Below are positions 3,796 through 64,000 of a stretch of DNA of 64,000 bases, piece by piece. Where the stretch lies: the IMG/VR virus record IMGVR_UViG_3300005613_000034. One strand, written 5' to 3'. The position numbers and the translations under genes are program-made. The number at the start of each line of letters is the position of its first letter. Positions within the stretch are counted from its first letter, which is position 1. The notes under the pieces were generated by a model. That model was not told the origin of the DNA, ran no database searches, and saw only the letters and a list, made by a program, of their open reading frames with translations. The DNA is from a virus. Its lineage: Duplodnaviria > Heunggongvirae > Uroviricota > Caudoviricetes.

Positions 3796-4128
3796 CTTCA
3801 CAATAATAACATAAATCTACCCAACTTTTAGGAATATTCATAACACGCCCACATCTTTTACATTTATTCATTTCGAACCAACCCTTTCTTTTGTAGAAAC
3901 AATTAAATATAAGTTATTACAATAATACTTCATGGTTAATAAAACATTTAGACTTTTTGAAATAAAAGCAAGTTCTTCAAAATCTGCTTTAAGAAAAGCA
4001 AGAATGGACAGAGAAAAAACAGGTGATGTTGTTTCTGCTGTTCGTTTAATTGGCGGACAAAGACGAAATGCACGAAACAAAAAATACATGGTGTTTGGTG
4101 GAAGAAGAGAAAGATTCTGAATAAATTT

Positions 4129-4149
4129 CATTCTCATTTCAACTCCTTT
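4129..4149 (-). repeat. conserved gene-junction motif copy
   Basis: cattctcatttcaactccttt at start of 3868..4137 (MRM...). Confidence 0.75.
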
Positions 4150-5006
4150 CCTTTCTTATCTTTAGCATCAGCAATCTTCCTCTCCAAAGAATCACACAAC
4201 TGAAACAAAACAAACGCATTATCCTTAATCGCCCTAATCTCATCCTTAATCTCCATTCAAAACACCATCCACAAACTCCTGCAACTTACTATTTAATTTA
4301 GAAAAAAACTCAATCATATAAACACCCCTGTTTCAATTTCTTCTTGAATCATCTTTGAAACTTCATGCCTTTTACCTTTATACTTTTCTTCCAAAGATTC
4401 TTCAATAATTGTTTGGAAAACTTCAGAACTTAGTTTATCTAAAACTTTTTGTTCCAAAAATTTATGATTTTTTAAGTTTAAATGTTTTGTTGAATCAAAC
4501 TCAACTGAAACATTTTCAGACAATCTAACTTTCACAATCATCTTCTCCAACTCCATCTAACATACAACGAGAACAAATAAATTTTAGTTTTAATTTACCT
4601 TTATCTTCTCCACAATAATAACAACCTTTCATTTTTCCAACTCCTTCATTTGTGATTCTACTATTTTTTGTAATTTTTGACTAAAATTTTCTCCTTCTTG
4701 TTCTTGAACAAAAGTGTATTGTTTTGTGTTCAAGTAAATTGTTTCATTAGGCATTATTTATTCCCTCCTTTTGTGTTTAGTAAGGTTCTTGGAGAACCAT
4801 AACAATATCCTTTTTGATTAACAAATTCTTCCCAATTCATTCAACCACCCCTCTTAAAGTAAATTGTATTTTTATGTTTTCTTTAAGCATACCTTCAAGA
4901 ACTTTTAATTCGTGTTTTTCACATTCTTTAATGTCTGCTCTTATACTTTTTTCTTCCCTTAATAGCAAATCCAACAAATATTGCTTTTGAAACCTTGTTA
5001 AATTTT

Positions 5007-9806: not shown

Positions 9807-12800
9807 TTATATTTTCATTTTTAAAAGTTTTTCATTTTCTTTTCCTAATACCGTTCGTTCGAACATATCATTTTTTAAAGCTTTTGCTTGAGCTCTATTT
9901 AATTGTTCTTGAGTTGGAATTGCATCATACCCGAAAAAACTTCCTTTTTTACCAATTGTTTCTCTTACCAATCCAATATTTTCGGCACTTGTAATTAAAT
10001 CTTTTTCTCCGAACGCGAATTTTCTAAACAAACTTGATTTTAATTGAATTAACGGAACTTTTCTTCCAGATTTTTCTCCTTTTTTCTTTTCCGGGTCTTG
10101 TTTCCCCCATCCACTACCAGCACCAAAAATTGGGCTAGCATATAAAGGATATTTATTATATGGTGGAATATACGGTGTAGGATCATATGGATATGGATCA
10201 TACGGTGTAGGATCATATGGATATGGATCATACGGTGTAGGATCATATGGATATGGATCATACGGTGTAGGATCATAAGGAGGTGGTTCATATGGAGGTG
10301 GTTCATATGGAGGAGGTTCATAAGGTGGGGGGGTTTCATATTTACTTGGATAATTTGGTTCTACATAATTTGGATCATTATATAAATTTTTATAATCATC
10401 AATATTATTTACATATTTTGTTTCTTTTAAAATTTTATCATATTCAGTAGTATCTCTTTCGGGCATTAAAATATTCCATCCATCATCAATTTTTTTATAA
10501 TAATCTTCTTTTACATTTTTATTTATATAAGGTGATTTTACAGTATTAATTTCTTCATATAACTCCGCTTGAGTTGGAACAGTGTTATCATATATAATTT
10601 TTAAAGAATCTTTTTGTTTTGGTGTTTGAACTTCAACTTTTGCGGCTTTTATTCCATAAATATCTTCTTTTACATTTTTACCAAGTGAAATTTTTCCTTC
10701 ACTAGGAGTAAATGTGGTTGTTTCTAAAAATCCTTGTTTCTTAAAAAAGTCTGCTTGTTTTTGATTAGCGGAAACCAATGTTTCGTTTTTCCCACTAAGA
10801 GAAATAATTGCAGTATTAACTTTTGGAACTTCATATGGATTTAAAATAGTTGTTTTTTCAACTGAAAATACAGGGCGAACATTTCCAATTAAATCAAATG
10901 CTTCTAACTGATTTCTAGTTCCTGCAGCTAAATTATTTTTAATATATTTTCCTGTTTGTGTTGTTGGGTTTAAAACTTCTTTTGGAGCATATTCAGAAAA
11001 ATATGAAAGTGCTTCTTTGTTTGCACCCCCAATAGTTTTAGACGCTGTGTGGGTATTTATACGTCTTAAAAATTTATCAAATGTTTTCTCATCCATAATT
11101 TTTTTAGCATCGGCCATTATATCACTAGTTTCTAATCTTTTTCCAGATTGATCTAATCTTAAAAAATTATTTTGATTAGATGGTTTTGTTATATAAGGAT
11201 CTGTACTATGTTGAATTTCGTGTAATAATGTACTTGTTTTATTTTTAATACCTTGAAATGGTTTAACAGAAATTGTTCCATCACTAGGTCTATAATATCC
11301 TAAAGATTTTATATCAAAATTTTTCTCCCATTGTAATAAAGATTCATCGGCACCTGTTAATCTAATAGCATCTCTATATCTAGCTGCATCGGCTGCCGAC
11401 CCAGTCAATTCAACACTTGGTGACATTAAATCAGATAAAATTAATTTTTGTTGAGGAATAGTTAAACTTGTTAAACTAAAATCTTTTAATGAAGGAATTG
11501 GTCTTGGTGCATCTCCTAAAACATTAGAATAACCTTCATATGCAACATTTTTAAACCAGTCAATATCTTTAGGTCTCCCAGATTCATAACCACCCATTAA
11601 TTTTCTACGCGCCTGTAATGCGGGGTTTAAAACATTTATACCTTCATCTGTTTTAACCCAACTTGTTGTTCTAGAAAAATCTTGAATATCACTAACTTTA
11701 TTTAATTGTTCATAAAGACCAGTAGCTTTTATTCCATGAATCGATGCAAAATGTTCAGAACCAGCATTTGCTGTTTTTATACTGACTTCCCATCCACCTT
11801 GCCCGGGGTGAATAACAATATCTGTTCTTGGATTGTTAGTAAAATATGTTCCTAAATCAATTTCTCCTTTATGCACATCAACATTTAATCCTTTTGAAGT
11901 AAATTCTTTTGCTATTTTTCCAGCTTGAGAATTAGTTGATAACCCTTCACCAAATAATGTTTTTACTACAACATCAAAATCTTTAGATTTTAAATCTTTA
12001 TTTTTAAATATTTTTGCGGCTTTATCTTTTGCATAAGAAAATGTACTAGATGTACTTCCACCCAATCCAACATCAGAAGAATTTTTTTGTAAATAAGATT
12101 TCATAGCTTCCAATGCTTTTTTTACCCGAGTCCCATCTTTTCCTTTAACTTGTTTTAAATCACTCCATTGAGAATATTCAATAGCTTCATCAAATGTTCT
12201 TGTTTTTGTTGTTTGTGCTGCCTTTCGTAAATCTTTATCAAAAGCTAATTCAATATCTGATGTTGCTTCTATTAACGTTGGTCTTTTTCCAGGTGAATTA
12301 AGAATTCTAAATTCTTTTTTATTTGATTTATTTAAAACAAATTCAGATTCTGGAATAAATGGAGTACCAGGAGTATTTATAACACTTCCCTCTTGAATAA
12401 TTACTTTTGATTCTGGGTTTCTAGCTATTTGTTTTATAATATTTTTAGATGTTGCTTTAGTAACTGGACTAAAAATTTTCTCCCCAATATCAGTTCCTAC
12501 TGGAGCAGCTAACATCATACCAGCTAATTCACTTCTTGCTTTACTACGTTCTTTAACATAAGTATCATATCCTTTTTCTGATGCAATATTATACAAATCA
12601 ACATTTGATTTTAATAAAGATCCAGTAAAATAAGCAGGTAAAACATATTTTCCTACAGTTTCACCAGTTTTTTCAATAAAAGCGAGTTTTTTATTAGCAG
12701 CAAAATTTGTTGTTGTTGTTTTTAAAGGATCTAAGACCCCGGAAAACCCACTTTGTTTAAATTGTTTGGCTGCTTCTGCAGCATCTTTAACAGTATATGT

Positions 12801-15038
12801 TGTGGTTTGAGTTCTTAATCCACCACTAAGTTTTTCAACAGCTTTTACATCCGCTGCATTAACAACCGTTTCCACTCCTTTCATTGCTGTTCCCAAAATT
12901 ACTCCAGTTCTAAGATTATCAGCAATAGTTTGGGCGCTCTGATCTTCTACTAGCATATTATATAAAGTTCCTTTTTGTAAAATTTTAGCGGCCGTTCCAA
13001 CAGTACCAATTTTTGGAAGTGGAGTAAATAAAATTGCTGATTCTGTAACAATTTCACCAAATGCTTCATGTTCGCCTTCCTTCTTTTTAACACCAGATTT
13101 AGAAACAATAACATATTTTTTATCCCACTCTTCTTTAGATAATGTTGCTGAATCAGCAAACGCTTGAGCATATAATTTATTTCCTTTAGGAGTTAAAAAG
13201 TATCCTTTCCCATCAGTAGAGTTATAAATTTTATTAATAATTGTATTATCCCCACGTAAAAAATCTTCTCTAGCTTTTTCAGCTAATTCAGGATCATTAG
13301 TAGCTCTAGCACTTGGAAGCCCTCTTAATACTTCACCACCAACAAACCTAGGAATTGAAAATAAAGATAATGTATCTCTAGCAACAGTAGGTAAAGTTCT
13401 TACTTTATCTGGCATATTAGCAAGTTTAGTTTCCAACATTTTTATATTTTTTTCATGATTTTCTTTCATATAAGGTAAAATTGCATTATCTCTATCATAT
13501 TTTTCCTTTTCTATTTGACGTCTAACAATTTCTTTTGCCCCCTCAGAAGAAATTTCTCCTTTACCAAAATCAATTTTATAATCAGTATCGCTTGGGGTAA
13601 TACCAAAAGTCGTCTTTTCCCCAGATATTGTAGAAGCCGCAAACTCAAGTGGTAAAACACTAATATTATAAGGAATTACTGCAGTATCTCCCACAAATTT
13701 TCCAACATCTAACACATTATCAGCTTTTTTATTTTTATCTAATTGATTATAAAATTTTCTTTCAACATTTCCCCAAAGTTCTCCAACAGTTTCATTCTCT
13801 CTTCTCATATCTTTATAATAAACTAAGTCCTCTTTAGCTTCTTTTAATTGATTAGTATCTTCAGTTAATTTAGCTAAAATATTTCCAATCCCATATTGAT
13901 TTTTATATTCATCATATGTTAATGTTTTATTTGTAGAAGAATCAAAATAAGGGGTTTTTTCATATTTTGTTTGTAATAATTTTTCATATTGTCCTTTATC
14001 TTTTTCAGATAATTTATCATATACCTCTTTAAATGTATCCCCTTTAATTAAATTAGCTTCTTTTGTATATTTATTAAATACATCTTCTTCTCTTTTTTGT
14101 ATATTAAATTTTTGATCTATACTTTTTATTTTTTCAACGTTTTTATTAATTGTAAATAACAACAATTCTTTCTCTGCTTCACTTAATGTATTATTAGGAG
14201 ATTCATACTTTTCAATATCAGTATTTGTTTTATCAACTAATTCTCTATATCCACTATAATTAACATCTGGATTTAATACTATATCTTTTCTAAATCCTTT
14301 ATATTCTTTTCCGGCTTCTGTATCAGGAATTTTTGTTCCAAGGTTAATTTGTGGCGTAGATTCATCTATAATAGATTGATCTAAACTTCTTGATGCTATA
14401 ACATTTCTAAAATATTCATCTTTTTTAATATTAGAAACATCTTTACCAGCAACAACATCTTGTGCAATCTTTGTAGCTAAATTACCACTTTTCATAATAT
14501 CAGTAATAGATTCATTCTGTTCAACTGTATTAAGTATATTTTTTCTTTCGTCTTGTAATTTAGAAAATTTTTCTCTAACTTCCTGTGATTCAATTGGATA
14601 ATTTGGTTTAGATGTTTTATTAAGTTTTACCTCACTCTTTTGCACAATTTTTACATTTTCGTTTCCTGCAGTTTTAAGATATTTAGAAGGTGGGGGAGCA
14701 CTAAAATATTTAGAAGTTGGTTTAGATGTAATATAAGAGCCGCCTTTTTTAACTCTTGGGGGTTGAGTAGTTCCAGCTTTACTAATAACAAGTTTTTTTG
14801 GAGGAGTGCTTTTAGGTTTAATATATTTAGAAAGTGGAGGCTGCGCGATAGGCTTAAAATAACTTCTATTTTCAGTAACAGTTCTTAATTCAGTAGGTGC
14901 TGATTGGCGAGCCTCTTCATAAGAAACTTTTCTATACCCCGCGCCTGGATCAACCGTAGAAGACATTCCTTGCCCGGTTTTAACATTAATATATTGCCCT
15001 GCACCACGATTAGCAGAAGAATTTACTGTAATGGCCAT
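9807..15038 (-). CDS. giant (1743 aa) putative virion-associated protein with HExxH motif and C-terminal Pro/Tyr tandem repeats
   Basis: LLHEIQHS motif; EPPPY x4 + DPTPYDPYPY x3 repeats; Lys-rich N-terminus. Confidence 0.7.
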   Translation of the reverse strand: MAITVNSSANRGAGQYINVKTGQGMSSTVDPGAGYRKVSYEEARQSAPTELRTVTENRSYFKPIAQPPLSKYIKPKSTPPKKLVISKAGTTQPPRVKKGGSYITSKPTSKYFSAPPPSKYLKTAGNENVKIVQKSEVKLNKTSKPNYPIESQEVREKFSKLQDERKNILNTVEQNESITDIMKSGNLATKIAQDVVAGKDVSNIKKDEYFRNVIASRSLDQSIIDESTPQINLGTKIPDTEAGKEYKGFRKDIVLNPDVNYSGYRELVDKTNTDIEKYESPNNTLSEAEKELLLFTINKNVEKIKSIDQKFNIQKREEDVFNKYTKEANLIKGDTFKEVYDKLSEKDKGQYEKLLQTKYEKTPYFDSSTNKTLTYDEYKNQYGIGNILAKLTEDTNQLKEAKEDLVYYKDMRRENETVGELWGNVERKFYNQLDKNKKADNVLDVGKFVGDTAVIPYNISVLPLEFAASTISGEKTTFGITPSDTDYKIDFGKGEISSEGAKEIVRRQIEKEKYDRDNAILPYMKENHEKNIKMLETKLANMPDKVRTLPTVARDTLSLFSIPRFVGGEVLRGLPSARATNDPELAEKAREDFLRGDNTIINKIYNSTDGKGYFLTPKGNKLYAQAFADSATLSKEEWDKKYVIVSKSGVKKKEGEHEAFGEIVTESAILFTPLPKIGTVGTAAKILQKGTLYNMLVEDQSAQTIADNLRTGVILGTAMKGVETVVNAADVKAVEKLSGGLRTQTTTYTVKDAAEAAKQFKQSGFSGVLDPLKTTTTNFAANKKLAFIEKTGETVGKYVLPAYFTGSLLKSNVDLYNIASEKGYDTYVKERSKARSELAGMMLAAPVGTDIGEKIFSPVTKATSKNIIKQIARNPESKVIIQEGSVINTPGTPFIPESEFVLNKSNKKEFRILNSPGKRPTLIEATSDIELAFDKDLRKAAQTTKTRTFDEAIEYSQWSDLKQVKGKDGTRVKKALEAMKSYLQKNSSDVGLGGSTSSTFSYAKDKAAKIFKNKDLKSKDFDVVVKTLFGEGLSTNSQAGKIAKEFTSKGLNVDVHKGEIDLGTYFTNNPRTDIVIHPGQGGWEVSIKTANAGSEHFASIHGIKATGLYEQLNKVSDIQDFSRTTSWVKTDEGINVLNPALQARRKLMGGYESGRPKDIDWFKNVAYEGYSNVLGDAPRPIPSLKDFSLTSLTIPQQKLILSDLMSPSVELTGSAADAARYRDAIRLTGADESLLQWEKNFDIKSLGYYRPSDGTISVKPFQGIKNKTSTLLHEIQHSTDPYITKPSNQNNFLRLDQSGKRLETSDIMADAKKIMDEKTFDKFLRRINTHTASKTIGGANKEALSYFSEYAPKEVLNPTTQTGKYIKNNLAAGTRNQLEAFDLIGNVRPVFSVEKTTILNPYEVPKVNTAIISLSGKNETLVSANQKQADFFKKQGFLETTTFTPSEGKISLGKNVKEDIYGIKAAKVEVQTPKQKDSLKIIYDNTVPTQAELYEEINTVKSPYINKNVKEDYYKKIDDGWNILMPERDTTEYDKILKETKYVNNIDDYKNLYNDPNYVEPNYPSKYETPPPYEPPPYEPPPYEPPPYDPTPYDPYPYDPTPYDPYPYDPTPYDPYPYDPTPYIPPYNKYPLYASPIFGAGSGWGKQDPEKKKGEKSGRKVPLIQLKSSLFRKFAFGEKDLITSAENIGLVRETIGKKGSFFGYDAIPTQEQLNRAQAKALKNDMFERTVLGKENEKLLKMKI
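10171..10325. repeat. tandem repeats: 3 perfect 30-bp units (+partial) then 3x 15-bp units, encoding DP(T/Y)PY / EPPPY
   Basis: tacggtgtaggatcatatggatatggatca x3; aggtggttcatatgg x3. Confidence 0.9.
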
Positions 15039-22632: not shown

Positions 22633-22672
22633 AAAAATAAAAAATAAGGCCCTGTGCGGGCCTTAAAAAAAG

Positions 22673-30234: not shown

Positions 30235-33200
30235 TTATTTTTTTGGTAAAATATCGCCCGCAGTTAGACACTTTGGACAAAATTTATGATTACCAGAAAT
30301 ATATCCGTGTAGTGGGCACACACTGAAAGTTGGGGTGATTGAGACATATGGTATTGAATAATTAGTAAAAATTTTCTTAATTAGATTTTTTACTGATTCA
30401 CCATTAGCTTTATGTTCACCTAAAAATATATGAAAAACCGTATTATGAACGAAAACCATACAATCATTACCAGCTAAATAATTATGGTTGTTTTTTGTTG
30501 TTAAATCATAAAACATATTATCTTTAACATTATGTTTATTTATAGATTTAACACGCGTTACAGGTAAAAATCTGGTATTTCTATTAGATTTTTGTGTTTT
30601 TATATAATTTTTATCTTTTGTTAAATTTAAGTTGTTTTTTTCTTGTGTTAAATAATAACTTGGTATTTGAAATATATAAATTAAAACTTCATTTATTTTT
30701 TTAGGTTGTCTTTTTCGTAATGAAAATGGAATTCCTGCTATAGAAAAAATTTCTTTTAAATCATTTTTAAGATTTTCTGATACAGTATAATATTCTCCTG
30801 TTCCTTGTTTTTTATTAATATGCCCATCTGAGTCTAATAATCCACTAATAAAGTGAAAAACATTATTTTTATTAAAATTATTTTTTATATAATTTGAAAC
30901 ACGAACATTATATGTTTTAGAACCAGGTTTAAATCCACATAATTTAAAAAAATTAATTATATTTTCTTTTGATGTTGGCAAAATCTTTAAATTTTTAGTC
31001 CTTTTATCTATATGTGACTTTGATATATTGGAATTGAAATTATTATTAAGAACATTTATAATTTTATTTATTGTTTTATCATTAGTTGAAAAAAATCTAA
31101 TTTTTTCTTTTTTAATATTATTATTCCCTCTATTATCATAATATGTACTCATACTACCATCCCCAATATAAAATCCTAACAACCACATTAAATCATTATT
31201 AATTTTTGAAGATTTATTTTTATATAAATTTGTTGATGTTTTTAAAATATAATCATTTTTTAATAATTCATCTGCTCGTTTTTCTATTATTTTTTTTGTT
31301 TTTTTATCATATACAAAAAATGGGTGCCAATTAGATGTAACAATATCTAAACCAAATTCACCAATTATTTTAATTTTATCTTTTTTAGAAACATCTATTT
31401 TCATTGCATCTATAACATCATCCCATTCACTAACATTTTTTTCTTTATTATAACTTAAAACTTTTAAATTTTTTAATTTTTTAAAATTATAAACTAAATC
31501 TTCAATTTTCATTAATCCTTTATTTGTTAAAATATCATTTCCTTTTTCTATACATCCACCGTTATAAATAGTTTGAATATCGTTCTGATTATCTAAAATA
31601 TTGAATAAATTCTTTTTAGAATCAACTTTTACTTGTGTTGAATTTGTGTAATATGGCGCCGCTTTATATTTTTCATAATTTTCGTTATTAGCGACTATTA
31701 TATCTGCATATTTTTTCTTGTCTTGTGCAGCAAATCTTCGGGTTACTCCTTCTGCTGGTGTAGCTTCCAAATTATATTCTTGCCCATCTTCTGCTTTATA
31801 TTGTTCTAATCTATTTTTCATATGATTCATTACTTTAATTGTAAATGCTTTACCTTCTTTAGATAATATATCCTTCCCTAAAAAGTTTTCGCATGATTCA
31901 TTCATACCATTCAATCCTATCGTGTTGAAATGGTTTGTCCAATATTGCCCTGTGTTTTGTTTGATATGGCGCATATAAAATTTTGTAAATGGAAAAAGTC
32001 CTTGTTCTGTCCATTTTTCAACAAACTTTCGTTTTTGTCTTAAAATTGTTGCTGACGCGTCCATTAATTCATCTAATCTATTAAAATAATCTCTTTCTGA
32101 ATGAGCAAGGTATCCTATTCTTGGCATATTTATAGTTACTACTCCCACCGAACCAGTTAACGGGTTTGCTGCAAACAACCCTCCTCCCCTTTTATTTAAT
32201 GTTTTTTTCTCTAACCGTAATCTGCAGCACATACTTACAGTATCTTCTGGGCTCATATCTGAATTAATATAATTTCCAAAATAAGGTATTCCATATTTTG
32301 CTGTAGCATCCCAAATTATTTTATGATTAGGATTATTCCAGTCAAAATTTTTATCAATATTTATTGTAGGAATTGGAAATGTAAAAACCTTTCCATTTTT
32401 ATCCCCTTCTAGATAAACTTCAAATAAAATTCTATTGAATAAATCAATTTCGGGTTGGAAATCTTTATAATTAACATTTTGAATTTTTCCACCTATAATA
32501 ACAGGAAGATTTTCCATATGTTTCGGGGGAGTTAAATCAAGCGTTATATTTGAGAAAGTTGATTGCCCACCAGATCTTGTGGTTACATTCATATTAAATA
32601 CAAATTCCTGTAGTGCTTGTTTAACTTCTTTTTCTGTTAATCCATCAAATCTAATAAAAGGGGCTAAATATGTATCAAAATTTGCAAATGCTTGGGCCCC
32701 AGAAAATTCATTTTGTGTTGTAAATAGAAAATTGACTATCTGCCCTAATGCACTTCTAAAATGTTTTGGGGGTGCTGATTCAATTTTTGATTCTACTCCT
32801 CCAAATCCTGTCAACAATAAATCTCTTAAATCCCATCCTTGACAATATGTACTTAAAGATCCTAAATCATGAATATGTAAATCTCCTTCAAAATGATATT
32901 TTGCAACTTCGGGGGCGAACACTTTATTCAACCAATATGTAGAACTAACTTTTTGTGCTATATTATGATTTAATCCTGATAATGAATATCGTGAATTTGA
33001 ATTTTCTTTTACTCTCCAATCAGCTTGGTTTAAATAATTATCTATTACAGCAGTATCTTCTACTATATTTTTAAAATTTCTTAAACTTTCGTGTTGGTGT
33101 CTATATAAAATATAAGATTTTGCAACTTTATCATGCCCGCGTTTAATAAGTGTCCTTTCGATAATGTCTTGAATTTCTTCAACAGACATCTCTTTTTTCT

Positions 33201-33360
33201 TTTCTTTTTTAATATTTTTTAAAATTTCATGTAGTAACACATCAAATTTTTCTTTATCATTGCCGCCTACACTTTTAACAGCATTCCATACGGCCCTTTC
33301 TATCTTTTCTTCATGAAATTTTTCCCTAGCTCCGTTTCTTTTTATAATAAATTCTATCAT
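30235..33360 (-). CDS. nrdD: anaerobic ribonucleoside-triphosphate reductase (class III, NrdD-like) with N-terminal ATP-cone, interrupted by an intein
   Basis: ATP-cone IIKRNGAREKFHEEKIERAV; SMCCRLRL resembling the NrdD thiyl-Cys region; C-terminal Cys cluster plus GY; extein ~670 aa. Confidence 0.75.
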   Translation of the reverse strand: MIEFIIKRNGAREKFHEEKIERAVWNAVKSVGGNDKEKFDVLLHEILKNIKKEKKKEMSVEEIQDIIERTLIKRGHDKVAKSYILYRHQHESLRNFKNIVEDTAVIDNYLNQADWRVKENSNSRYSLSGLNHNIAQKVSSTYWLNKVFAPEVAKYHFEGDLHIHDLGSLSTYCQGWDLRDLLLTGFGGVESKIESAPPKHFRSALGQIVNFLFTTQNEFSGAQAFANFDTYLAPFIRFDGLTEKEVKQALQEFVFNMNVTTRSGGQSTFSNITLDLTPPKHMENLPVIIGGKIQNVNYKDFQPEIDLFNRILFEVYLEGDKNGKVFTFPIPTINIDKNFDWNNPNHKIIWDATAKYGIPYFGNYINSDMSPEDTVSMCCRLRLEKKTLNKRGGGLFAANPLTGSVGVVTINMPRIGYLAHSERDYFNRLDELMDASATILRQKRKFVEKWTEQGLFPFTKFYMRHIKQNTGQYWTNHFNTIGLNGMNESCENFLGKDILSKEGKAFTIKVMNHMKNRLEQYKAEDGQEYNLEATPAEGVTRRFAAQDKKKYADIIVANNENYEKYKAAPYYTNSTQVKVDSKKNLFNILDNQNDIQTIYNGGCIEKGNDILTNKGLMKIEDLVYNFKKLKNLKVLSYNKEKNVSEWDDVIDAMKIDVSKKDKIKIIGEFGLDIVTSNWHPFFVYDKKTKKIIEKRADELLKNDYILKTSTNLYKNKSSKINNDLMWLLGFYIGDGSMSTYYDNRGNNNIKKEKIRFFSTNDKTINKIINVLNNNFNSNISKSHIDKRTKNLKILPTSKENIINFFKLCGFKPGSKTYNVRVSNYIKNNFNKNNVFHFISGLLDSDGHINKKQGTGEYYTVSENLKNDLKEIFSIAGIPFSLRKRQPKKINEVLIYIFQIPSYYLTQEKNNLNLTKDKNYIKTQKSNRNTRFLPVTRVKSINKHNVKDNMFYDLTTKNNHNYLAGNDCMVFVHNTVFHIFLGEHKANGESVKNLIKKIFTNYSIPYVSITPTFSVCPLHGYISGNHKFCPKCLTAGDILPKK
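30442..31554 (-). mobile_element. intein (371 aa) with LAGLIDADG homing endonuclease
   Basis: N-splice GG|CIEKGNDILT; LLGFYIGDGS and ISGLLDSDGHI LAGLIDADG motifs; C-splice VFVHN|T. Confidence 0.8.
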
Positions 33361-40627: not shown

Positions 40628-40646
40628 ATCTATTTCAACTCCTTTA
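40628..40646 (-). repeat. conserved gene-junction motif copy (distant, 40 kb from array)
   Basis: catctatttcaactccttt followed by attaattccttaactc, as at 266-300. Confidence 0.8.
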
Positions 40647-40908
40647 TTAATTCCTTAACTCTTTCCTCATCAATCTCAACACAACGCAAAAAATCCCTTT
40701 TTCTTTTATCTCCATCTCCAATTCCAATAAAATTATTCTTTATTGCTTTATCCCAACAATCATTTAAATAAATAGAATAAGCCTTTGCAAATCCAATAGC
40801 ATTATCTTCCCACAAAAAATCAAACAAATCATCAACAAGAACAGCATCTTTACAATAACCTATTTGCCCACCAAAACTTTTCTTTTCCAAAAACTCTCTC
40901 ATACCCAT
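40630..40908 (-). CDS. hypothetical protein, cassette family (paralog of 275..613)
   Basis: shared MGMREFL start and RVKELIKELK end plus flanking junction motifs. Confidence 0.6.
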   Translation of the reverse strand: MGMREFLEKKSFGGQIGYCKDAVLVDDLFDFLWEDNAIGFAKAYSIYLNDCWDKAIKNNFIGIGDGDKRKRDFLRCVEIDEERVKELIKELK

Positions 40909-40925
40909 TCTATTTCAACTCCTTT
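40906..40925 (-). repeat. conserved gene-junction motif copy (distant)
   Basis: cattctatttcaactccttt at start of 40630..40908. Confidence 0.8.
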
Positions 40926-41121
40926 ATAATAATTTTTTTCTAATATATCCAACGCGGACATAATCTTCATAACTAATGTCTTTCATAAAATCTAAATCTT
41001 TAATTGTTCCCCCACCCCGCCTAACAATATCATGTAAATCCGCAACATTAATATATTGATTATCCGCTAAATGTTTTAAACTATGTTTTACAAATTTTTT
41101 ATTCTTCATATCCAACACCAA
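40924..41121 (-). CDS. hypothetical protein (65 aa)
   Basis: ORF upstream of junction motif. Confidence 0.35.
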   Translation of the reverse strand: MVLDMKNKKFVKHSLKHLADNQYINVADLHDIVRRGGGTIKDLDFMKDISYEDYVRVGYIRKKLL

Positions 41122-44551: not shown

Positions 44552-45457
44552 TTATATTTTGTTTAATAATATATATTTACCCGCAATCTTTTTAAGTTCT
44601 TCGTTTATATTTTCCATATGCTGTTTATGGGTTTTAATGTATTCAATATTTTCATTTATAAGAGAAATTATTTCATCTTTATAAAATATTGCAATTATTT
44701 TACTTTCTTTTCTATCCCAAGAAATTTTTTGATTATAATAATTAAATATATCTCTGGTTTGATATCCTTTATTTCTTCCAATAGATACTCCATTTCCAGT
44801 TAAATACAATTTATCTTGTTCATGTAATTCTTGGTAATAATATCCAAAAAATTTTGTATTAAAAGAGTCTTTTGTTATATTACTAATTTCATTTAGTTTT
44901 TCTTGTGGTATATTTATTTCAATATTTTTATAACAATCCATTTTATTATTTATTAATATTTTTTTTATTTTTTCTAAACAGATTTTTCCCTCGTCAGTCA
45001 TAACTTCTTTTATATCATTAAAAAGAATTTCGTTATTAAAAAATCCCCAAAAAGAATAATCTCCATCAAACAAAGAACCTAATGTTGTTATATTTCCATT
45101 TTGATTCCACGCATACCCTATTCCTTTTTTTGATATTTGAATATATCTTCCTGTATAATGTAATTGTCCTAAATGAGTTTTGGTTTGTTTTTTATAAAAA
45201 AATTTTATTATATTATTTATATCATTAGCTATTAAATGTTCTTTTGAATAATATTCTAAATATTTTAAATTATTAATATAAGTTGTTTCAATTTCTTTAA
45301 TAACATTAGAATTATTTATTAATATTTTATCAACTTTATTTTCTGCATTCTGTGAATTTTCATCTCTCATCTTTGTTATTATATTTTCAATTTTATCTTG
45401 TTCTTTTCTGTATGTTAAATTAATATTATTTATATCTTCTATTAATTTTTTATCCAT
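44552..45457 (-). CDS. tandem paralog A of unknown family (KFFYKKxTKT / ISK(K/R)GIG motifs)
   Basis: NNIIKFFYKKQTKT...IQISKKGIGY; C-terminal GKYILLNKI. Confidence 0.55.
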   Translation of the reverse strand: MDKKLIEDINNINLTYRKEQDKIENIITKMRDENSQNAENKVDKILINNSNVIKEIETTYINNLKYLEYYSKEHLIANDINNIIKFFYKKQTKTHLGQLHYTGRYIQISKKGIGYAWNQNGNITTLGSLFDGDYSFWGFFNNEILFNDIKEVMTDEGKICLEKIKKILINNKMDCYKNIEINIPQEKLNEISNITKDSFNTKFFGYYYQELHEQDKLYLTGNGVSIGRNKGYQTRDIFNYYNQKISWDRKESKIIAIFYKDEIISLINENIEYIKTHKQHMENINEELKKIAGKYILLNKI

Positions 45458-45475
45458 GCGCTTCCCTCCAGATAA

Positions 45476-46282
45476 TTATATTAGTTGTGTAGTAAAATAT
45501 TTTGCACCAAGTTGGTTAAAATCTTCTATAAATTTTTCAAAGGTTTTATTTTTATTTCTTGTGTCTTCTCCGTTTTCATTTACAAATTCTGTTATTTCAT
45601 TAATATAAATTCCAGTTAAAGTTTTAGATAAAAAAGAATCACTAAAGTTTATTGACTTATTTGAATAACAAAATAAATCTATAGTTGTTTCCCAAGTATC
45701 GGTAGCACTTGAAGACAATTGAATGTTTGGTTCATCTGTATCACATTCTAAATATAAATATTCAATTTCTTCTTCTTGGTTTCCTATTATTTTTTTAACA
45801 TTATCATCTAATACAATTTTCATTGACTTATCTTTTATTTCACCACTATCTAAATTTTTATTTTTTTCAATTAATTTTTTTAATTTTTCAAAAAAATCTT
45901 TACCTTCATCATTAAGATTTTTTATAAGATTTTTATATACAGATTTTGTTGTTAAAATGTATTCTAATGAATTATCTTTTCCAAATAAATCTTCTAAAAG
46001 TTTCATATTTCCAAATCCATAAACAAATCCTATTCCTCTTTTAGATATTTGATAATTAATGCTACTAAGATATTGAGTTGGTTTTTTATAAAATGTTGTT
46101 TTCGTTGGCTTTTTATAAAAAAATTTTATAATACTATTCAATTGTTTTAACATTTTTTCTTTATTTTCATTATTATAATAATGTCTTAATTTTATGCTTT
46201 CCAAATCATGTTTAAGTAATTCAGCATTCTTTTCGGCGTTATTATTAAATTCTATAATGTTTTCAACTTCTTTTGTATTCAT
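45476..46282 (-). CDS. tandem paralog B of same family
   Basis: LNSIIKFFYKKPTKT...YQISKRGIGF. Confidence 0.55.
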   Translation of the reverse strand: MNTKEVENIIEFNNNAEKNAELLKHDLESIKLRHYYNNENKEKMLKQLNSIIKFFYKKPTKTTFYKKPTQYLSSINYQISKRGIGFVYGFGNMKLLEDLFGKDNSLEYILTTKSVYKNLIKNLNDEGKDFFEKLKKLIEKNKNLDSGEIKDKSMKIVLDDNVKKIIGNQEEEIEYLYLECDTDEPNIQLSSSATDTWETTIDLFCYSNKSINFSDSFLSKTLTGIYINEITEFVNENGEDTRNKNKTFEKFIEDFNQLGAKYFTTQLI

Positions 46283-46296
46283 ATATTTCCCTCCAT

Positions 46297-47121
46297 TTAT
46301 AATGCTTTTATTAATAAATATTTTGAAGACAAATCATTAAATTCATTAATAAAGTTTTCCCATTTTTCATTTTCAACTTTCAATATTTTAGCGACATCGT
46401 TTGTAATCTTTTTTAATTCATCAAAATAAATTAATGTTATAATTTGACTATCAAAAGAGTTTGCATAATCAATACCTTTATAACCTTTCCCATATTGAAA
46501 CAACCTATATTCATTTCTAAAATAATCTTCTTTTTCATTACTATCAATCACATATAATTTAACTACCCCACGTTCGTTTACCATTTCAATTTTATTTATA
46601 TTTTCTGTGCCAGTAATTAAATTTACTAAACTATTTGATTCAATATCAAATACATCTTTTGTTGGTTTATATTTTAATTCATATTTTTTAATTAAATTTT
46701 TAAGTTCTTTAAAATATGTTTTTCCATTATCGTTTAATTTTTCATACACTTCATTAAACAACTCTTCGTTTTCAAAAACAATTGCCATAGGATAGTCTTC
46801 ATCAAAAAACTTATAAAATAATTCCATATTAGAACCCGAATAATACCCAGTTCCTATTCCTCGTTTTGAAAATTGAATGTGTCTTTCGGGATTGTATCCC
46901 CTATTATTATCATTTAATTTATATTTTTTAAGTTCTGTTTTTGTTTGTTTAGAATAAAAAAACTTCATAATATTATTTATATCAGAAGCTATTTTTTTAT
47001 TTGACTCATACCCATTATCAGAAAATAAAGTTATCGTATCTAAATCTTCTTTTAATTCATTAATTTTATCTCTGTTTTTTACTATATATTCTTCTGTTTG
47101 TTTAAATGTTGTGCAATCCAT
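46297..47121 (-). CDS. tandem paralog C of same family
   Basis: INNIMKFFYSKQTKT...IQFSKRGIGT. Confidence 0.55.
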   Translation of the reverse strand: MDCTTFKQTEEYIVKNRDKINELKEDLDTITLFSDNGYESNKKIASDINNIMKFFYSKQTKTELKKYKLNDNNRGYNPERHIQFSKRGIGTGYYSGSNMELFYKFFDEDYPMAIVFENEELFNEVYEKLNDNGKTYFKELKNLIKKYELKYKPTKDVFDIESNSLVNLITGTENINKIEMVNERGVVKLYVIDSNEKEDYFRNEYRLFQYGKGYKGIDYANSFDSQIITLIYFDELKKITNDVAKILKVENEKWENFINEFNDLSSKYLLIKAL

Positions 47122-51679: not shown

Positions 51680-52316
51680 TTAATCCATCTCCTCTAATTC
51701 AACAATCTTTCCATACAACTCATCTATTTCAGTTGTATATTCTTTAACACTGCTTAATGCGTTTTTAATTATTTGTATCTCTTCTTTTGTAAAATCATAT
51801 ATCATTTAATCACTTCCTCGCCTTGTTTAACAACTTTTGTTCTACATTCAAACACTGACTTATAAGTTTTCGCCCATTCTTTCGCTACATCTTCTTTTTC
51901 AAAGTCAGTTGCTAATATTTCCCAATCGTTGTTTTGATAGTATAAAATATTATACATCGGTTTCACCTCCGTTTAATATAGCCACGCTTACTATTATTAT
52001 TCTTCATTTGTTTATAGTAAGCTAATTCCCACGAATGTATTTTTGTTTTATTTTTGTTCCTACAATTAATTAAACACATATTTTTTGTGTCTAAATAAAA
52101 CTTTCCTTCTTTCGTTTTTACAACTTCCAAATAAACCCCCCCTTAATCAGTTGTAGTAATCAATAGGGGATAGTTTCCATATTATTCAATACAATTTTCC
52201 AACCTAAAATCGTCATACTGACGACTACCTATATATTTAGTGCATACTTATAGCTACGCACAGATTGAATAATATTTCCGTGTCTATCCCCCGTATTTAC
52301 AAGAGATTAAGTGGAT

Positions 52317-52502
52317 TTATTTTTCTGTTGCAAATTTCTTGATTTCTTCAAGGTTTGCAAGGATAAGGTTTGCTTTTCCTTTTCCTATATGTAGGTTTCC
52401 AAAAGATTTTGTTTCATCTCTACCAATAGTCAATATTGGCTTACCTTTAAACTCGCTGTATGCAACGAATGGTTTTGGTTCAGGTTTTAATTTGATTTCC
52501 AT
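52317..52502 (-). CDS. small protein, N-terminal EIKLKP family
   Basis: MEIKLKPEPK.. similar to MVEIKLKPDK.. of 53002..53289. Confidence 0.4.
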   Translation of the reverse strand: MEIKLKPEPKPFVAYSEFKGKPILTIGRDETKSFGNLHIGKGKANLILANLEEIKKFATEK

Positions 52503-52727
52503 TTATTGAACACCCCCGTTTAGTAGTTCTTCAATTTTTGTTTTTTCTGATGGACATAGTGAAACATATTTGTCAAGAATTTCTGTCTTAACAAATGTAT
52601 CTACATCTGTCCTTTCGTTTATTTCTGCCTTTGACTTTACATAGTCAAGAGCAACTGCTACATTTTTAGACATTTTAAATGCCTTTCTTGTAGTATTCTC
52701 GTCCTTTTTTGCATTTACTTCTACCAT
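52503..52727 (-). CDS. hypothetical protein (74 aa) with structured 5' leader
   Basis: preceded by 21-nt repeat, GC hairpin and GGAGGGA SD. Confidence 0.4.
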   Translation of the reverse strand: MVEVNAKKDENTTRKAFKMSKNVAVALDYVKSKAEINERTDVDTFVKTEILDKYVSLCPSEKTKIEELLNGGVQ

Positions 52728-52759
52728 ATATATCCCTCCAATAGTAGTTTTTAGCCCGT

Positions 52760-52780
52760 GCTTTGATGAGTAATCTCTGC
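52760..52780. repeat. 21-nt repeat GCTTTGATGAGTAATCTCTGC, copy 1
   Basis: identical copies at 52922-52942 and 53312-53332. Confidence 0.85.
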
Positions 52781-52793
52781 TCGGACATATTAC

Positions 52794-52817
52794 GGGATAG
52801 TATCTCCATACTACCCC
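52794..52817. other. GC-rich hairpin GGGATAGTAT-ctcc-ATACTACCCC next to repeat copy 1
   Basis: 10-bp stem (1 mismatch) in AT-rich DNA. Confidence 0.5.
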
Positions 52818-52921
52818 TTTCTATATATTCATTCAATCTATTTCAACATTATCAGAGATGATACTTTTTACCTGACGCTGATATCTGCGTATATCACAGT
52901 CATCTTCAAATGTTGGCTCTC

Positions 52922-52942
52922 GCTTTGATGAGTAATCTCTGC
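52922..52942. repeat. 21-nt repeat, copy 2
   Basis: identical sequence. Confidence 0.85.
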
Positions 52943-52963
52943 AAGAACATTTAGGATAGGTTA

Positions 52964-52985
52964 GGGGGTAGATTTTACTACCCCC
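52964..52985. other. GC-rich hairpin GGGGGTAG-atttta-CTACCCCC next to repeat copy 2
   Basis: perfect 8-bp G/C stem. Confidence 0.5.
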
Positions 52986-53001
52986 AATAATAAAAGAAGA
53001 T

Positions 53002-53289
53002 TTATGCCCATCTATTACAGGTTTTATCTACATAATGGAAACCATAATAATAGTTCTTTCCTACTTTCAACTGATTTATAGTTCCGTTTTCTTTTCTTGT
53101 TTTATTCAGAATGCAATTTATGGCGTTCTGTTCTGCATTCAAACGGCTTTCAGTATCCCCTAAATTATAGCGTCTTTGTTCCATTAAGAACATTCTGCCC
53201 ATATTCTGAGTAGAAATATTTGCTACAACTCTTAAAGTTGATTTCCGTATGAATGTAGATTTGTCTGGTTTTAATTTTATTTCTACCAT
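53002..53289 (-). CDS. small protein, N-terminal EIKLKP family (start taken at MVEIK)
   Basis: annotated Met at 53340 lies inside the 21-nt repeat; MVEIKLKPDK follows the GAGGTGG SD. Confidence 0.45.
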   Translation of the reverse strand: MVEIKLKPDKSTFIRKSTLRVVANISTQNMGRMFLMEQRRYNLGDTESRLNAEQNAINCILNKTRKENGTINQLKVGKNYYYGFHYVDKTCNRWA

Positions 53290-53311
53290 TAATCCACCTC
53301 TTTTTTCATTT

Positions 53312-53332
53312 GCTTTGATGAGTAATCTCTGC
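53312..53332. repeat. 21-nt repeat, copy 3
   Basis: identical sequence ~20 nt upstream of GAGGTGG SD and ATG 53289. Confidence 0.85.
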
Positions 53333-54105
53333 AAACGCATAAAGAGTATAGGTAAATCTAATATCGTATCTTTCTATCGTTGGTTTCATAAACCGAACAT
53401 TCAATTAATCAATATTTAGATTAATAGATGTTAAAAATTAGAAAGAGAATTGAATTAAATTTACCCATAATTCTTTATTTCTCTATCTATTAGCTAATTG
53501 CGTTTTTTCACTAATAGAATTAGGACTTTCACCTGTTTTAAGTATTCATTAAATACTTACTTCCGACACTAACTTCATAAGTAGAAACTTTCAAAAACTA
53601 TATTTAGTTTTATCCCGTGTGCCTTATAGTTTAACCTTTTTACAAATAGAACGCTATTTGCAACTGATTAAACCTTTTGCGTTCCAAAAAGAAATTAATT
53701 CTTTTTAGTGAATAGGTTTTTTTGCCTATTCTTAAAGTGCATTACTTACATTTTTTTAAATCTTAAAATAAAACTTTTTTTCTCGTGTTAATCCACGAAA
53801 AGAAAAAATTTTAAGTTATTGGTTGCGACTTAAAAAAATTTCGTGCAATTTAATTTTTCTTGTGGAAATAAAAAATCTCATAACCACTCAACCAAAAATT
53901 TAATTTTTGGATTAAAGAAAAAGCCATTAAAAAAATGCTTCCTCTCTACAAATAGGAATAAAAAAAATCTCTCATTCTAATATATAAACTTTTGCTTAAA
54001 ATTTTCGGTGTGTTTCTCAAAAAGTGGGTTTAAGTGCATTATAACAATATACATAACGCACAAAATCCCTAAAACTTATACATAACTCATCTCCAAAATT
54101 TTTTT

Positions 54106-54130
54106 GAGAACGGGCTTAAAACCCGTTCTC
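54106..54130 (-). terminator. hairpin GAGAACGGG-cttaaaa-CCCGTTCTC overlapping stop of 54116..54451
   Basis: 9-bp perfect stem. Confidence 0.45.
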
Positions 54131-54451
54131 ATATTGTAAATAAGGCATATAATCTATTTTTTCTTTTATTAAAATTGGCTCAATCTCTCTTAATTGCCTT
54201 ACTTTATCTTTTTGTATTTCTCTATTATAAAGAGTTATTTCAGTTTTTTCTTTTTGTTTGCCTATTCTATAAGACATTTTCTTAATGGCGTTTGACGGAT
54301 AAAAAACCTTATATGCTACATTATTATTTGTTATTTGGTAATATCCGTTCGTTTTTCTTATTTGTTTTTGTAATAAGTCAGCATTTGCTTTTAACTTATT
54401 TATTTCTTCTTTATTTCTCTTTTCTTCTGTTCTTTTTCTTTCTTCTTTCAT
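54116..54451 (-). CDS. hypothetical Lys/Glu-rich protein (111 aa)
   Basis: first minus-strand gene after strand-switch region. Confidence 0.4.
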   Translation of the reverse strand: MKEERKRTEEKRNKEEINKLKANADLLQKQIRKTNGYYQITNNNVAYKVFYPSNAIKKMSYRIGKQKEKTEITLYNREIQKDKVRQLREIEPILIKEKIDYMPYLQYENGF

Positions 54452-54842
54452 TTAATCACCTATTTATATATATTTTCGGGAATAAAGCAACATAACGGAT
54501 TAAAGCGATTAATAAAGGCAGAAAAACCCCTTAAAAATAAAAAGAAGGTTAAACTGAACTTGGATTTTGAAACAAAGCCCAAAATGAGCTTTAAATCAAA
54601 AATAAACCTTAAAATTAGGTTTAAATCCAAAAACCAATATTTCACGCAAAAAAGCAGTTATGCTGAAATGCCCGAAAATGTTAATTTTATTAACAAATAT
54701 GATATACTAACGGAAAGAGAGTTTATATAGAATGTGTGAATTTTGCTGTAATATATGGACAGGAAAACAGGGTTTATATGTATCAAAATATACAGGAATA
54801 ACTAATTAACTGAACAAAATGAACATTAACTAAGCGTAGTGA

Positions 54843-54894
54843 ATGAGTGAATTGTTATGTAGAAGTGGCGAAAATGAGCTGTTATGTAGAAGTG
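54843..54894. repeat. two direct repeats AATGAG..TGTTATGTAGAAGTG (~23 bp) in strand-switch region
   Basis: 54843-54868 and 54871-54894. Confidence 0.8.
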
Positions 54895-54935
54895 AATATA
54901 GGTGAACTAGCGCAAACGGAGGGCTACATCCCCCT

Positions 54936-54990
54936 TAAATTATATAAATTATATAAATTATATAAATTTTATAAAGTTTATAAATTTTAT
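54936..54990. repeat. tandem TTATATAAA / TTTATAAA AT-rich repeats (iteron or DUE-like)
   Basis: aaattatataaattatataaattatataaattttataaagtttataaatttta; related copies 55075-55125. Confidence 0.8.
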
Positions 54991-55591
54991 ATGAGAGTGG
55001 TTTTCACCAAAAAATTCAATCCTCATAGAGCGCGAAATTAAAAAAAATTGAAAAAATGGCGAAGCACTATATCCATATAAATTTTATATGATATATAAAT
55101 TTTATAAATTTTATAAGAGATTTCTAGTACATCGATCACATCAAAAAGAAACAATCTTTTTCTTTTGTCTAAACTCTTTAAACAATTACAGTACTATATA
55201 AACAAAAAGCTTTGTGTGGCGGCATTCAAGACCAGCTGAAATTCCAAATTTTTGAGTTTTGGCTCGTAGTTAAAAATTAGGGTAAGGGTAGTAGTCGAAA
55301 AAGTGTTCAAAATAGCATGAAACAACACTTGTTTACCTTATTGCACTATTGTTAAATTTGGTTTCGGGGTGGCTTTAGACCCCCGTAGAATAAACGCAGA
55401 CCCCCAATACACCTATTTTACGGCACCCTGATATAGGTAGGGGCAAAAAACGATTTTTTGTGAGGGAGACTTTATCAAATTTTACAAAAATGTTTTGAGT
55501 TGATGCCCAGGAGACCCTTTTTAACAGTTGCCCAGGCCATTTCTGGACCAGAGTAAAAACATTTATATACTTTGATGCACTATAATATATA

Positions 55592-63875: not shown

Positions 63876-63948
63876 GGGCGGGTAGCTTAGTGGTTGGAGC
63901 ACTCGACTGATAATCGAGAGGTCGGGAGTTCAAGTCTCCCCCTGCCCA
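63876..63948 (+). tRNA. tRNA-Ile (anticodon GAU)
   Basis: GGGCGGG/CCTGCCC acceptor with one G-U pair; D stem GCTT/GAGC; anticodon arm CTCGA-CTGATAA-TCGAG; T-arm GGGAG-TTCAAGT-CTCCC; discriminator A. Confidence 0.85.
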
Positions 63949-63952
63949 TTCA

Positions 63953-64000
63953 AGCCCCGTAGTGTAGCGGCCAAGCATTCAGGACTTTGAATCCTGCGAC
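63953..64000 (+). tRNA. tRNA-Gln (anticodon UUG), truncated at window end
   Basis: A1-start AGCCCCG acceptor, archaeal-type; anticodon arm CAGGA-CTTTGAA-TCCTG; CGAC variable region. Confidence 0.7.

Follow-up and report, generated by a model that had tools for sequence, protein, structure and literature searches.

The subject of this analysis is a small stem-loop present in three copies in a 64,000-nucleotide (nt) stretch of viral DNA (hereafter the window; IMG/VR virus record IMGVR_UViG_3300005613_000034, Caudoviricetes), which is part of a large phage-like genome with a GC content of about 30%. The stem-loop is real, independently conserved and structurally supported, and it is found at the very start of a minus-strand gene cluster, after a region of about 750 nt that is free of open reading frames (ORFs). 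Since every gene in this part lies on the minus strand, all elements are described on that strand, i.e. the coding strand. From the structure, strand, conservation and position of the element, each of which can be observed directly, we infer with about even confidence that it serves as a protein-recognized RNA operator, which would co-regulate two early units at the level of translation or processing.

A covarying stem-loop on the coding strand

The original prediction, made from the sequence alone, had drawn attention to a 21-nt repeat starting at positions 52760, 52922 and 53312, and exact matches are indeed found at all three places. The 21-mer (GCTTTGATGAGTAATCTCTGC on the plus strand, GCAGAGATTACTCATCAAAGC in its minus-strand form) occupies 52760-52780, 52922-52942 and 53312-53332; even allowing up to 3 mismatches no further match was recovered from the 64-kb window, with 0 expected from 100 shuffles. 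It had been conceived as a linear site beside hairpins; instead, the 21-mer itself is the apex of a covarying stem-loop. The 5-mers that flank it are complementary to each other and an ATG lying 5 nt upstream of it is present without exception. Every copy forms a stem-loop of 31 nt, wherein the 5 variable bases on each side combine with the terminal GC pairs of the 21-mer to form a 7-bp stem. RNAalifold, run unaided, gives the same structure, namely the 7-bp stem, a 3x3 internal loop AGA/AAA made up entirely of purines, an invariant 3-bp helix GAU/AUC and a pentaloop of the form UA(C/U)U(C/U). The 17-nt top of the element (AGAGAUUACUCAUCAAA) is near-invariant across the five lineages described below, as is the AUG, which is single-stranded and adjoins the 5' foot of the stem. 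Within the apex, variation is confined to the two C/U sites, both in the pentaloop.

Copy 1 (53307..53340, minus strand) comprises the AUG at 53340-53338, the 5' arm at 53337-53331, the 17-nt apical part at 53330-53314 and the 3' arm at 53313-53307, and scores 63.1 bits with a covariance model of the element. From the end of its stem it is 17 nt to the start codon of the first gene behind it, a 95-amino acid (aa) ORFan (53002..53289, minus strand; MVEIKLKP...). Copy 3 (52755..52788, minus strand; AUG 52788-52786; 63.3 bits), whose stem UCCGAGC/GCACGGG contains one A·A, ends 27 nt before the start codon of a 74-aa ORFan (52503..52727, minus strand; MVEVNAK...). The start of a 61-aa ORFan (52317..52502, minus strand; MEIKLKP...) abuts the stop of this gene, and the 74-aa and 61-aa genes thus constitute one unit. 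Copy 2 (52917..52950, minus strand; AUG 52950-52948; stem UUCUUGC/GCGAGAG; 62.1 bits) has no convincing gene behind it and marks the upstream boundary of an extra unit of 162 bp. The motif had been proposed to lead paralogous small genes: it does precede the 95-aa and 74-aa genes, but these are mutually unrelated, and the 61-aa gene is not directly preceded by a copy. The EIKLKP N-terminus common to two of the genes is real, though the similarity is weak (8/19 identical, E = 4e-4).

The outer stem tolerates extensive change, with arm pairs (5'/3') of CGUUUGC/GCAAAUG, CAUUUGU/GCAAAUG, UUCUUGC/GCGAGAG, UUCUUGC/GCAAGGG, UCCGAGC/GCACGGG and UCCUUAC/GUAGGGA. In the alignment of 9 distinct copies 97.8% of the pair cells are standard, a share that drops to 26-44% if the 3' partners are shifted by 1-3 columns. 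Compensatory double changes affect four of the seven outer pairs, and none of 500 shuffles reached the observed covariation score, a statistic that overstates the independence of related copies. Nine of the ten copies adopt the structure in single-sequence minimum free energy (MFE) folds with 45-nt flanks. Among the orthologs of copy 1, identity is 100% in the AUG and 93% in the apex, and falls to 59-64% for the two arms of the stem and 55-72% for the flanking sequence. Only these orthologs have a further lower stem of 5-6 bp, and in them a pyrimidine run before the AUG can pair with the region of the Shine-Dalgarno (SD) sequence around the hairpin. Counted on the coding strand, G·U cells number 12 in the outer stem and A·C cells 0, indicating that it is this strand which folds, most simply as RNA. 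The wobble pairs of the neighboring G/C hairpins likewise fall on the coding strand.

Conservation in relatives and turnover of cassettes

Relatives of the locus were recovered by means of the 95-aa and 74-aa ORFans, and all of them are uncultured large phages; no homologs of the downstream ORFans were found outside this lineage. Beyond a 99.9%-identical contig (L001), which has the same three copies, they fall into four further lineages (L002/L042/L261-263, L003-005, L006/L035 and L264/265), making five lineages with that of the window and L001. Orthologous proteins from the four are 65-85% identical to those of the window. Wherever a lineage includes the site, the motif is there with 0-4 changes, both before the 95-aa gene and a second time before the 74-aa gene, at a distance of 17-27 nt from the start codon and 5-14 nt before the SD. 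Given that the motif is kept while its flanks and the adjacent proteins have diverged, it is not merely a by-product of recent duplication. A recent tandem duplication lacking independent conservation, which had been named as an outcome fatal to the idea of a dedicated regulatory leader, is thus not what is observed, and that idea stands in its general form. Among the candidates set aside for the ORFan products are a PC4/YdbC-like fold for the 61-aa protein and a ribbon-helix-helix for the 74-aa protein, both suggested by low-confidence models for which Foldseek found nothing, and P0013 as a remote homolog of the 95-aa protein, a spurious match to a eukaryotic Ig-repeat protein.

A covariance or structure search had been recommended as a check. 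With filters off, a covariance model built from ten copies recovers from the window only the three known copies at 62-63 bits, the next best match scoring 13.8; relatives score 56-66 bits, whereas chance 18-mer matches elsewhere reach at most 34. Another recommended check was for the 21-mer elsewhere in the genome; the exact sequence is absent from viral and genome collections as well, with near-copies confined to the relatives. A degenerate 18-mer scan of three collections returned about 250 loci, which besides the relatives are only chance matches, mostly inside coding genes and unrelated by BLAST. Rfam 15 run over the whole window at the gathering threshold reported only a tRNA, and E-value scans of 51800-53800, 53250-55300 and the loci of four relatives yielded nothing significant over the element. 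The stem-loop fits no described family; its kind, however, is a familiar one, i.e. a leader hairpin operator with cassette behavior like that of the promoter-early stem-loop (PeSL) cassettes of T4-type phages (PMC2839356).

This behavior is apparent from the number of copies, which is three in the window and L001 and two or one in the other relatives. The 162-bp extra unit (52760..52921) corresponds to one repeat period from copy 2 to copy 3; it is present in the window and L001 and absent in L006 and L042, and within it is a non-coding block shared with L264, where it lies upstream of the single copy. The alternative view of a modular cassette duplicated with its gene thus holds in part, for this unit, which is bounded by two copies and missing from relatives; the element itself is conserved independently. 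In relatives with a single copy before the 74-aa gene, the 5' arm UUCUU is combined with the 3' arm AAGGG (ACGGG in copy 3). Thus, in L003 and L042 the 5' arm of copy 2 is joined to a 3' arm one base off that of copy 3 with pairing restored, the outcome to be expected from a deletion between the two 21-mers and a later compensatory change. The identical 21-mers would, as a by-product, act as homology patches for the gain and loss of small cassettes.

The PeSLs resemble the present locus in being composite intergenic motifs upstream of small ORFans in an early plastic region, in combining a GGGG...CCCC stem-loop with an adjacent conserved element followed by the SD and ATG, and in delimiting by their copies the indels between close relatives, a role played here by the ends of the 162-bp unit. 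They differ in carrying a sigma-70-type -35/-10 promoter, which was not found here, and in their number of about 50 per genome as opposed to 2-3 copies; further, the conserved element is here a covarying hairpin. A promoter scan detected no sigma-70-type promoter at any copy of the motif, and inspection by eye revealed weak -10-like hexamers at variable distances, with no accompanying -35.

Neighboring hairpins, the upstream leader and the genomic setting

Two G/C hairpins were reported next to the repeats, and both are real on the minus strand. Hairpin A (52964..52985; GGGGGUAG-UAAAAU-CUACCCCC, or GGGGGTAG-TAAAAT-CTACCCCC as DNA) lies 16 nt beyond the stop codon that ends the 95-aa gene and lacks a U-tract, while hairpin B (52794..52817; GGGGUAGUAU-GGAG-AUACUAUCCC, or GGGGTAGTAT-GGAG-ATACTATCCC as DNA), with one G·U on the coding strand, lies 5 nt upstream of the AUG of copy 3; they precede copies 2 and 3, respectively. 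Their rarity was rightly noted, as only 4 hairpins having 7 bp or more in the stem, 5 or more of them G-C pairs, exist on the minus strand of the 64 kb, a cut-off below which hairpin B falls. Nevertheless, the layout of hairpin, repeat, SD and ATG of a small gene is not general, because copy 1 has no G/C hairpin and copy 2 no gene. In all lineages the stop codon of the 95-aa gene is followed by a G/C hairpin, whose loops differ; its stem is another one in L264 (GAGGGCAG/CUGCUCUC), and the L003 hairpin, GGCAU/AUGCC, is located behind an extra 35-aa gene. Across the copies and their relatives the hairpin lies 1-14 nt from the AUG. This variable distance, together with the differing stems and loops, indicates that the G/C hairpin is a separate 3'-end element rather than a part of the motif. 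Most of the local G/C hairpins lack a U-tract, though a canonical intrinsic terminator, with an 8-bp G/C stem followed by a T-run, occupies an intergenic position elsewhere in the window (22645-22665, minus strand) and another follows the 61-aa gene of L006.

The related motifs noticed at 52165 and, inverted, at 52284-52293 do exist (GGGGATAG at 52292-52284 and CTATCCCC at 52172-52165), but they are the two arms of a single 128-nt hairpin (52165..52292, minus strand) after the 61-aa gene, with a clamp of GGGGGAUAG/CUAUCCCC and an MFE of -39.6 kcal/mol (z = -3.2). The clamp at its feet is kept in all lineages while the apical inserts range from 6 to about 205 nt; counterparts are located at 955-978 in L264, 1490-1640 in L261 and 7410-7625 in L003. 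The long hairpins of L261 and L003 have in common an inner segment, GGUGGUUAGCAYUAUAUAGCGAACCCAC.

Upstream of copy 1 lies an ORF-free, conserved leader (53341..53632, minus strand) in which the coding-strand helices are kept. Its pair cells are 93% paired, versus 35-47% when slid, and 16 pairs show double changes among 4 sequences; the CTATAC motif of the original prediction is GAUUUACCUAU, the 3' arm of a 10-bp long-range helix in this leader. The conservation of the leader and its folding on the coding strand suggest that transcription starts upstream of copy 1. The ORF-free region as a whole (53341-54104, minus strand; about 750 nt) is 74-77% conserved among the lineages, has a 125-nt multi-helix domain just 5' of copy 1 and no Rfam match, and is possibly a long structured 5' leader or non-coding RNA. 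At its upstream end a hairpin (54105-54131, minus strand; GAGAACGGG...CCCGUUCUC) overlaps the stop codon of a 111-aa gene and is followed by A7U4 rather than a U-tract; it is kept in L003 and L006 with different stem sequences. Additionally, a motif of the form GGU(G/U)(N)AAAGUCC(U/G)A followed by a hairpin is seen once in the copy-1 leader (53519-53533, minus strand) and twice in an intergenic region of L264 (260-275 and 381-396), and appears from these occurrences to be a second recurrent leader module.

The minus-strand cluster headed by the stem-loops extends from about 54.4 kb to the left end of the window and encodes an AAA ATPase, a VWA/metallopeptidase, a DNA ligase, an anaerobic ribonucleotide reductase NrdD, a family-B DNA polymerase, a D5-type primase-helicase and a methylase. 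The divergent plus-strand arm contains an integrase-like gene, radical-SAM and transferase genes and tRNAs. No match to any cultured phage was found at the DNA level. Between the two arms are two inverted arrays of 9-bp tandem repeats similar to TATAAATTT (54933-54996 and 55075-55129), at which the GC skew switches sign and overlapping promoter-like sites of the form TTTATA-N16-TATAAT occur on the minus strand; this is a candidate for an origin or a divergent early promoter region.

Several other features were observed in the window. The NrdD gene (30235-33360, minus strand) is split by an intein that includes a LAGLIDADG endonuclease domain. A 1743-aa ORF (9807-15038, minus strand) without a family or PDB match holds a 15-nt tandem repeat (10134-10342) encoding a Gly/Tyr-rich repeat. 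A block found at gene starts, AAAGGAGTTGAAATG(A), recurs at 131-165, 965-1002, 1144-1181, 1278-1315, 2682-2716, 4127-4164 and 40907-40941, and a 68-nt repeat, 93% identical between 274-341 and 40629-40696, is placed at the ends of two genes that lie 40 kb from each other; one of its copies is also where the independent contig L001 breaks. Three neighboring ORFs of 268-301 aa, none with a family match (44552-47121, minus strand), have repeated DNA segments in common, which suggests that they are a paralogous trio. At the right edge of the window (63876-64000, plus strand) a tRNA-Ile(GAU) is followed after 5 nt by a second tRNA-like sequence cut by the window end, and this looks like a phage tRNA cluster.

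Candidate readings of the stem-loop

An invariant apex borne on a stem of free sequence is characteristic of a site that a specific factor reads, and this points to a protein-binding RNA operator. According to this favored reading, the coding strand would fold into the 31-nt stem-loop most simply in the early mRNA, just upstream of the SD of the first two early units, i.e. the 95-aa gene and the pair of 74-aa and 61-aa genes. The invariant apex and the AUG would be recognized by a single sequence-specific factor, which is probably a phage protein, and both units would thereby be controlled together after transcription. Its most likely mode of action would be to block or permit ribosome entry. 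Translational operators situated just 5' of the SD, such as those of E. coli thrS and the targets of T4 RegA, are structured, sequence-specific protein sites, at about -17 to -50 relative to the start codon, that can exclude the 30S subunit. As a translational operator the stem-loop would be placed like the thrS operator hairpin, and as with these systems one repressor could act on several early mRNAs, even though there is no similarity to them in sequence or structure.

Alternatively, a cut may be directed in the single-stranded linker between the upstream 3' hairpin and the stem-loop, which would then form a 5' hairpin. RNase III requires roughly two helical turns of duplex. The stem-loop offers only 10 bp, distributed as 7 + 3 bp around the 3x3 loop that breaks them, in contrast to the (interrupted) duplex of about 20 bp in an RNase III site. 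The conserved sites for RNase III that lie between the early genes of T7 and of SP82 (SP82 as cited within PMC4838370) are nonetheless comparable in that similar stem-loops are repeated between the cistrons of an early polycistronic mRNA, giving it hairpin-protected ends.

Certain observations weigh against an RNA operator. Copy 2 has no gene to regulate. No candidate for an RNA-binding protein emerged among the three ORFans, for which Pfam, PHROG and PDB gave no match and AlphaFold models had a predicted local distance difference test (pLDDT) score of 60-64. The covariation derives from about six distinct stem types from related copies, hence the overstated independence mentioned above, and the structure of the copy-1 leader rests on 4 sequences, the same ones from which it was derived. 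Moreover, single-stranded DNA also tolerates G·T pairs, making a coding-strand DNA hairpin possible, and should the G/C hairpins without U-tracts act as terminators, the position of the element is precisely where a promoter would be required.

We regard it as possible, though clearly less probable than an RNA operator, that the stem-loop is a signal of a phage-specific transcription system, in a lineage of phages unrelated to N4. It would then be either a coding-strand hairpin promoter for a polymerase that is delivered or made early, or a hairpin, in the non-template strand or the nascent RNA, by which a dedicated elongation factor is loaded at the start of each early unit. If this were so, it would represent a new promoter or recruitment grammar, in which an invariant 17-nt apex and an AUG are presented on a sequence-free stem.

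Somewhat more doubtful is a recruitment site for antitermination, at which the polymerase would be modified to read through the hairpins after each unit, by the logic of lambda nut/boxB, LoaP or RfaH-ops. The boxB of lambda nutL and nutR is a leader RNA hairpin that recruits an antiterminator. LoaP likewise requires a nearly identical small hairpin in the leaders of two operons, dfn and mln, upstream of terminators (PMC12691694), and the arrangement of near-identical small hairpins with a conserved apex in the leaders of two units, each with a G/C hairpin after its gene or genes, is reminiscent of such regulons. RfaH reads a hairpin of the non-template strand, i.e. the strand that folds here (PMC5995543), and L006 has its canonical terminator behind the 61-aa gene. 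However, the apices differ, with a GNRA-like pentaloop or UNCG in the known systems and an internal loop plus pentaloop here; neither a boxA nor a cognate factor was identified, and the element is found directly before the SD of each unit, whereas processive antitermination requires one site per operon. In addition, the general lack of U-tracts in the local G/C hairpins, the distance of about 300 nt or more between copy 1 and any plausible promoter, and the absence of a NusG-like or N-like protein among the scanned ORFs of the 64 kb are all difficult to reconcile with this mechanism.

[quoted passage not shown] On this account the inverted repeat is extruded from DNA, a phage-specific RNA polymerase reads the apex and ATG and starts just downstream, and each copy is an early promoter behind a terminator-like hairpin. 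Consistent with it, three copies in the same orientation lie within 590 bp at the head of an early cluster, with a conserved core and stem bases that are free if paired, just as in the three N4 early promoters. Further, nothing but the element is conserved from the upstream hairpin to the SD, an interval in which no sigma-70-type promoter is seen, and N4-like phages are among the best cultured-phage matches of the adjacent pair of AAA ATPase and VWA/metallopeptidase. Yet N4 uses the template-strand hairpin, while pairing is here favored on the coding strand; on the template the 12 G·U cells become A·C, leaving 5-6 of the 7 pairs. In the N4 hairpins a stem of 5-7 bp carries a loop of 3 nt, and the core is a GC-rich heptamer, in contrast to the 7-bp stem and 17-nt AT-rich apex of the present element, an apex of a size that would make extrusion costly. 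No RNA polymerase gene was detected among the scanned ORFs of the 64 kb (including those of 1743, 942 and 453 aa), and the sequence upstream of copy 1 resembles a transcribed, structured RNA.

A double-stranded DNA operator for a repressor or activator, e.g. the 74-aa product acting on its own promoter, seems improbable to us. An identical 21-bp site directly upstream of small early genes is the classical layout of autoregulated phage regulators, and the 74-aa protein is predicted to be helical; but an operator of this kind leaves unexplained why the arms change yet remain complementary, and why G·U and A·C are so asymmetrically distributed. The dyad symmetry of the core is weak, all copies have the same orientation relative to the genes, and no DNA-binding domain was detected. 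Least probable is an element with no function of its own, either a duplication remnant, for which the clearly local duplication giving the third copy in the window might speak, or a short leader peptide M-x-x-QRLLIKA, for which the ATG, the frame open in most copies and two C-to-T changes synonymous in it might speak: the element is conserved in five lineages with diverged flanks and its stem covaries, and copy 1 of L003 has a TAG at codon 4, no SD precedes the ATG, and frames and lengths are inconsistent relative to the downstream genes (gene callers, too, extend through the motif in different frames).

Several other candidates were tried and rejected. A self-cleaving ribozyme, suggested by the likeness of TTGATGAG on the plus strand to a hammerhead core, has no Rfam match, and the plus strand pairs worse. 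A linear promoter of the T7/T3 type (CTCATCAAAG compared to CTCACTAAAG) is contradicted by the covarying flanks, and no T7-like polymerase was found. Patterns for sigma-70, sigma-54, MotA-box and Bacteroidetes promoters gave no consistent match by eye and none in the promoter scan. For an antisense or kissing-loop partner acting in trans, the best non-self duplex with the 17-nt apex in the 64 kb (-15.5 kcal/mol) lies in coding sequence, and nothing conserved was seen. A preQ1-I-like hairpin with an A-tail, a box C/D K-turn, a CRISPR-repeat mimic, an integron attC site and a RAT antiterminator were discarded on account of misfits in sequence or strand and lack of Rfam support.

No long-standing question is opened by the stem-loop; its value is that of a clean candidate for experiment and of a marker for the early region in this group of phages. 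If the RNA operator reading is right, it would be a compact and well-defined RNA recognition module, with a 7-bp stem of free sequence, an invariant apex of 17 nt and an AUG beside it, through which one factor controls the very first genes expressed by a large uncultured phage. The module would offer a handle for fishing out its factor and extend the few known phage leader operators by one family, while its identical 21-mers may double as recombination patches that shuffle small early cassettes.

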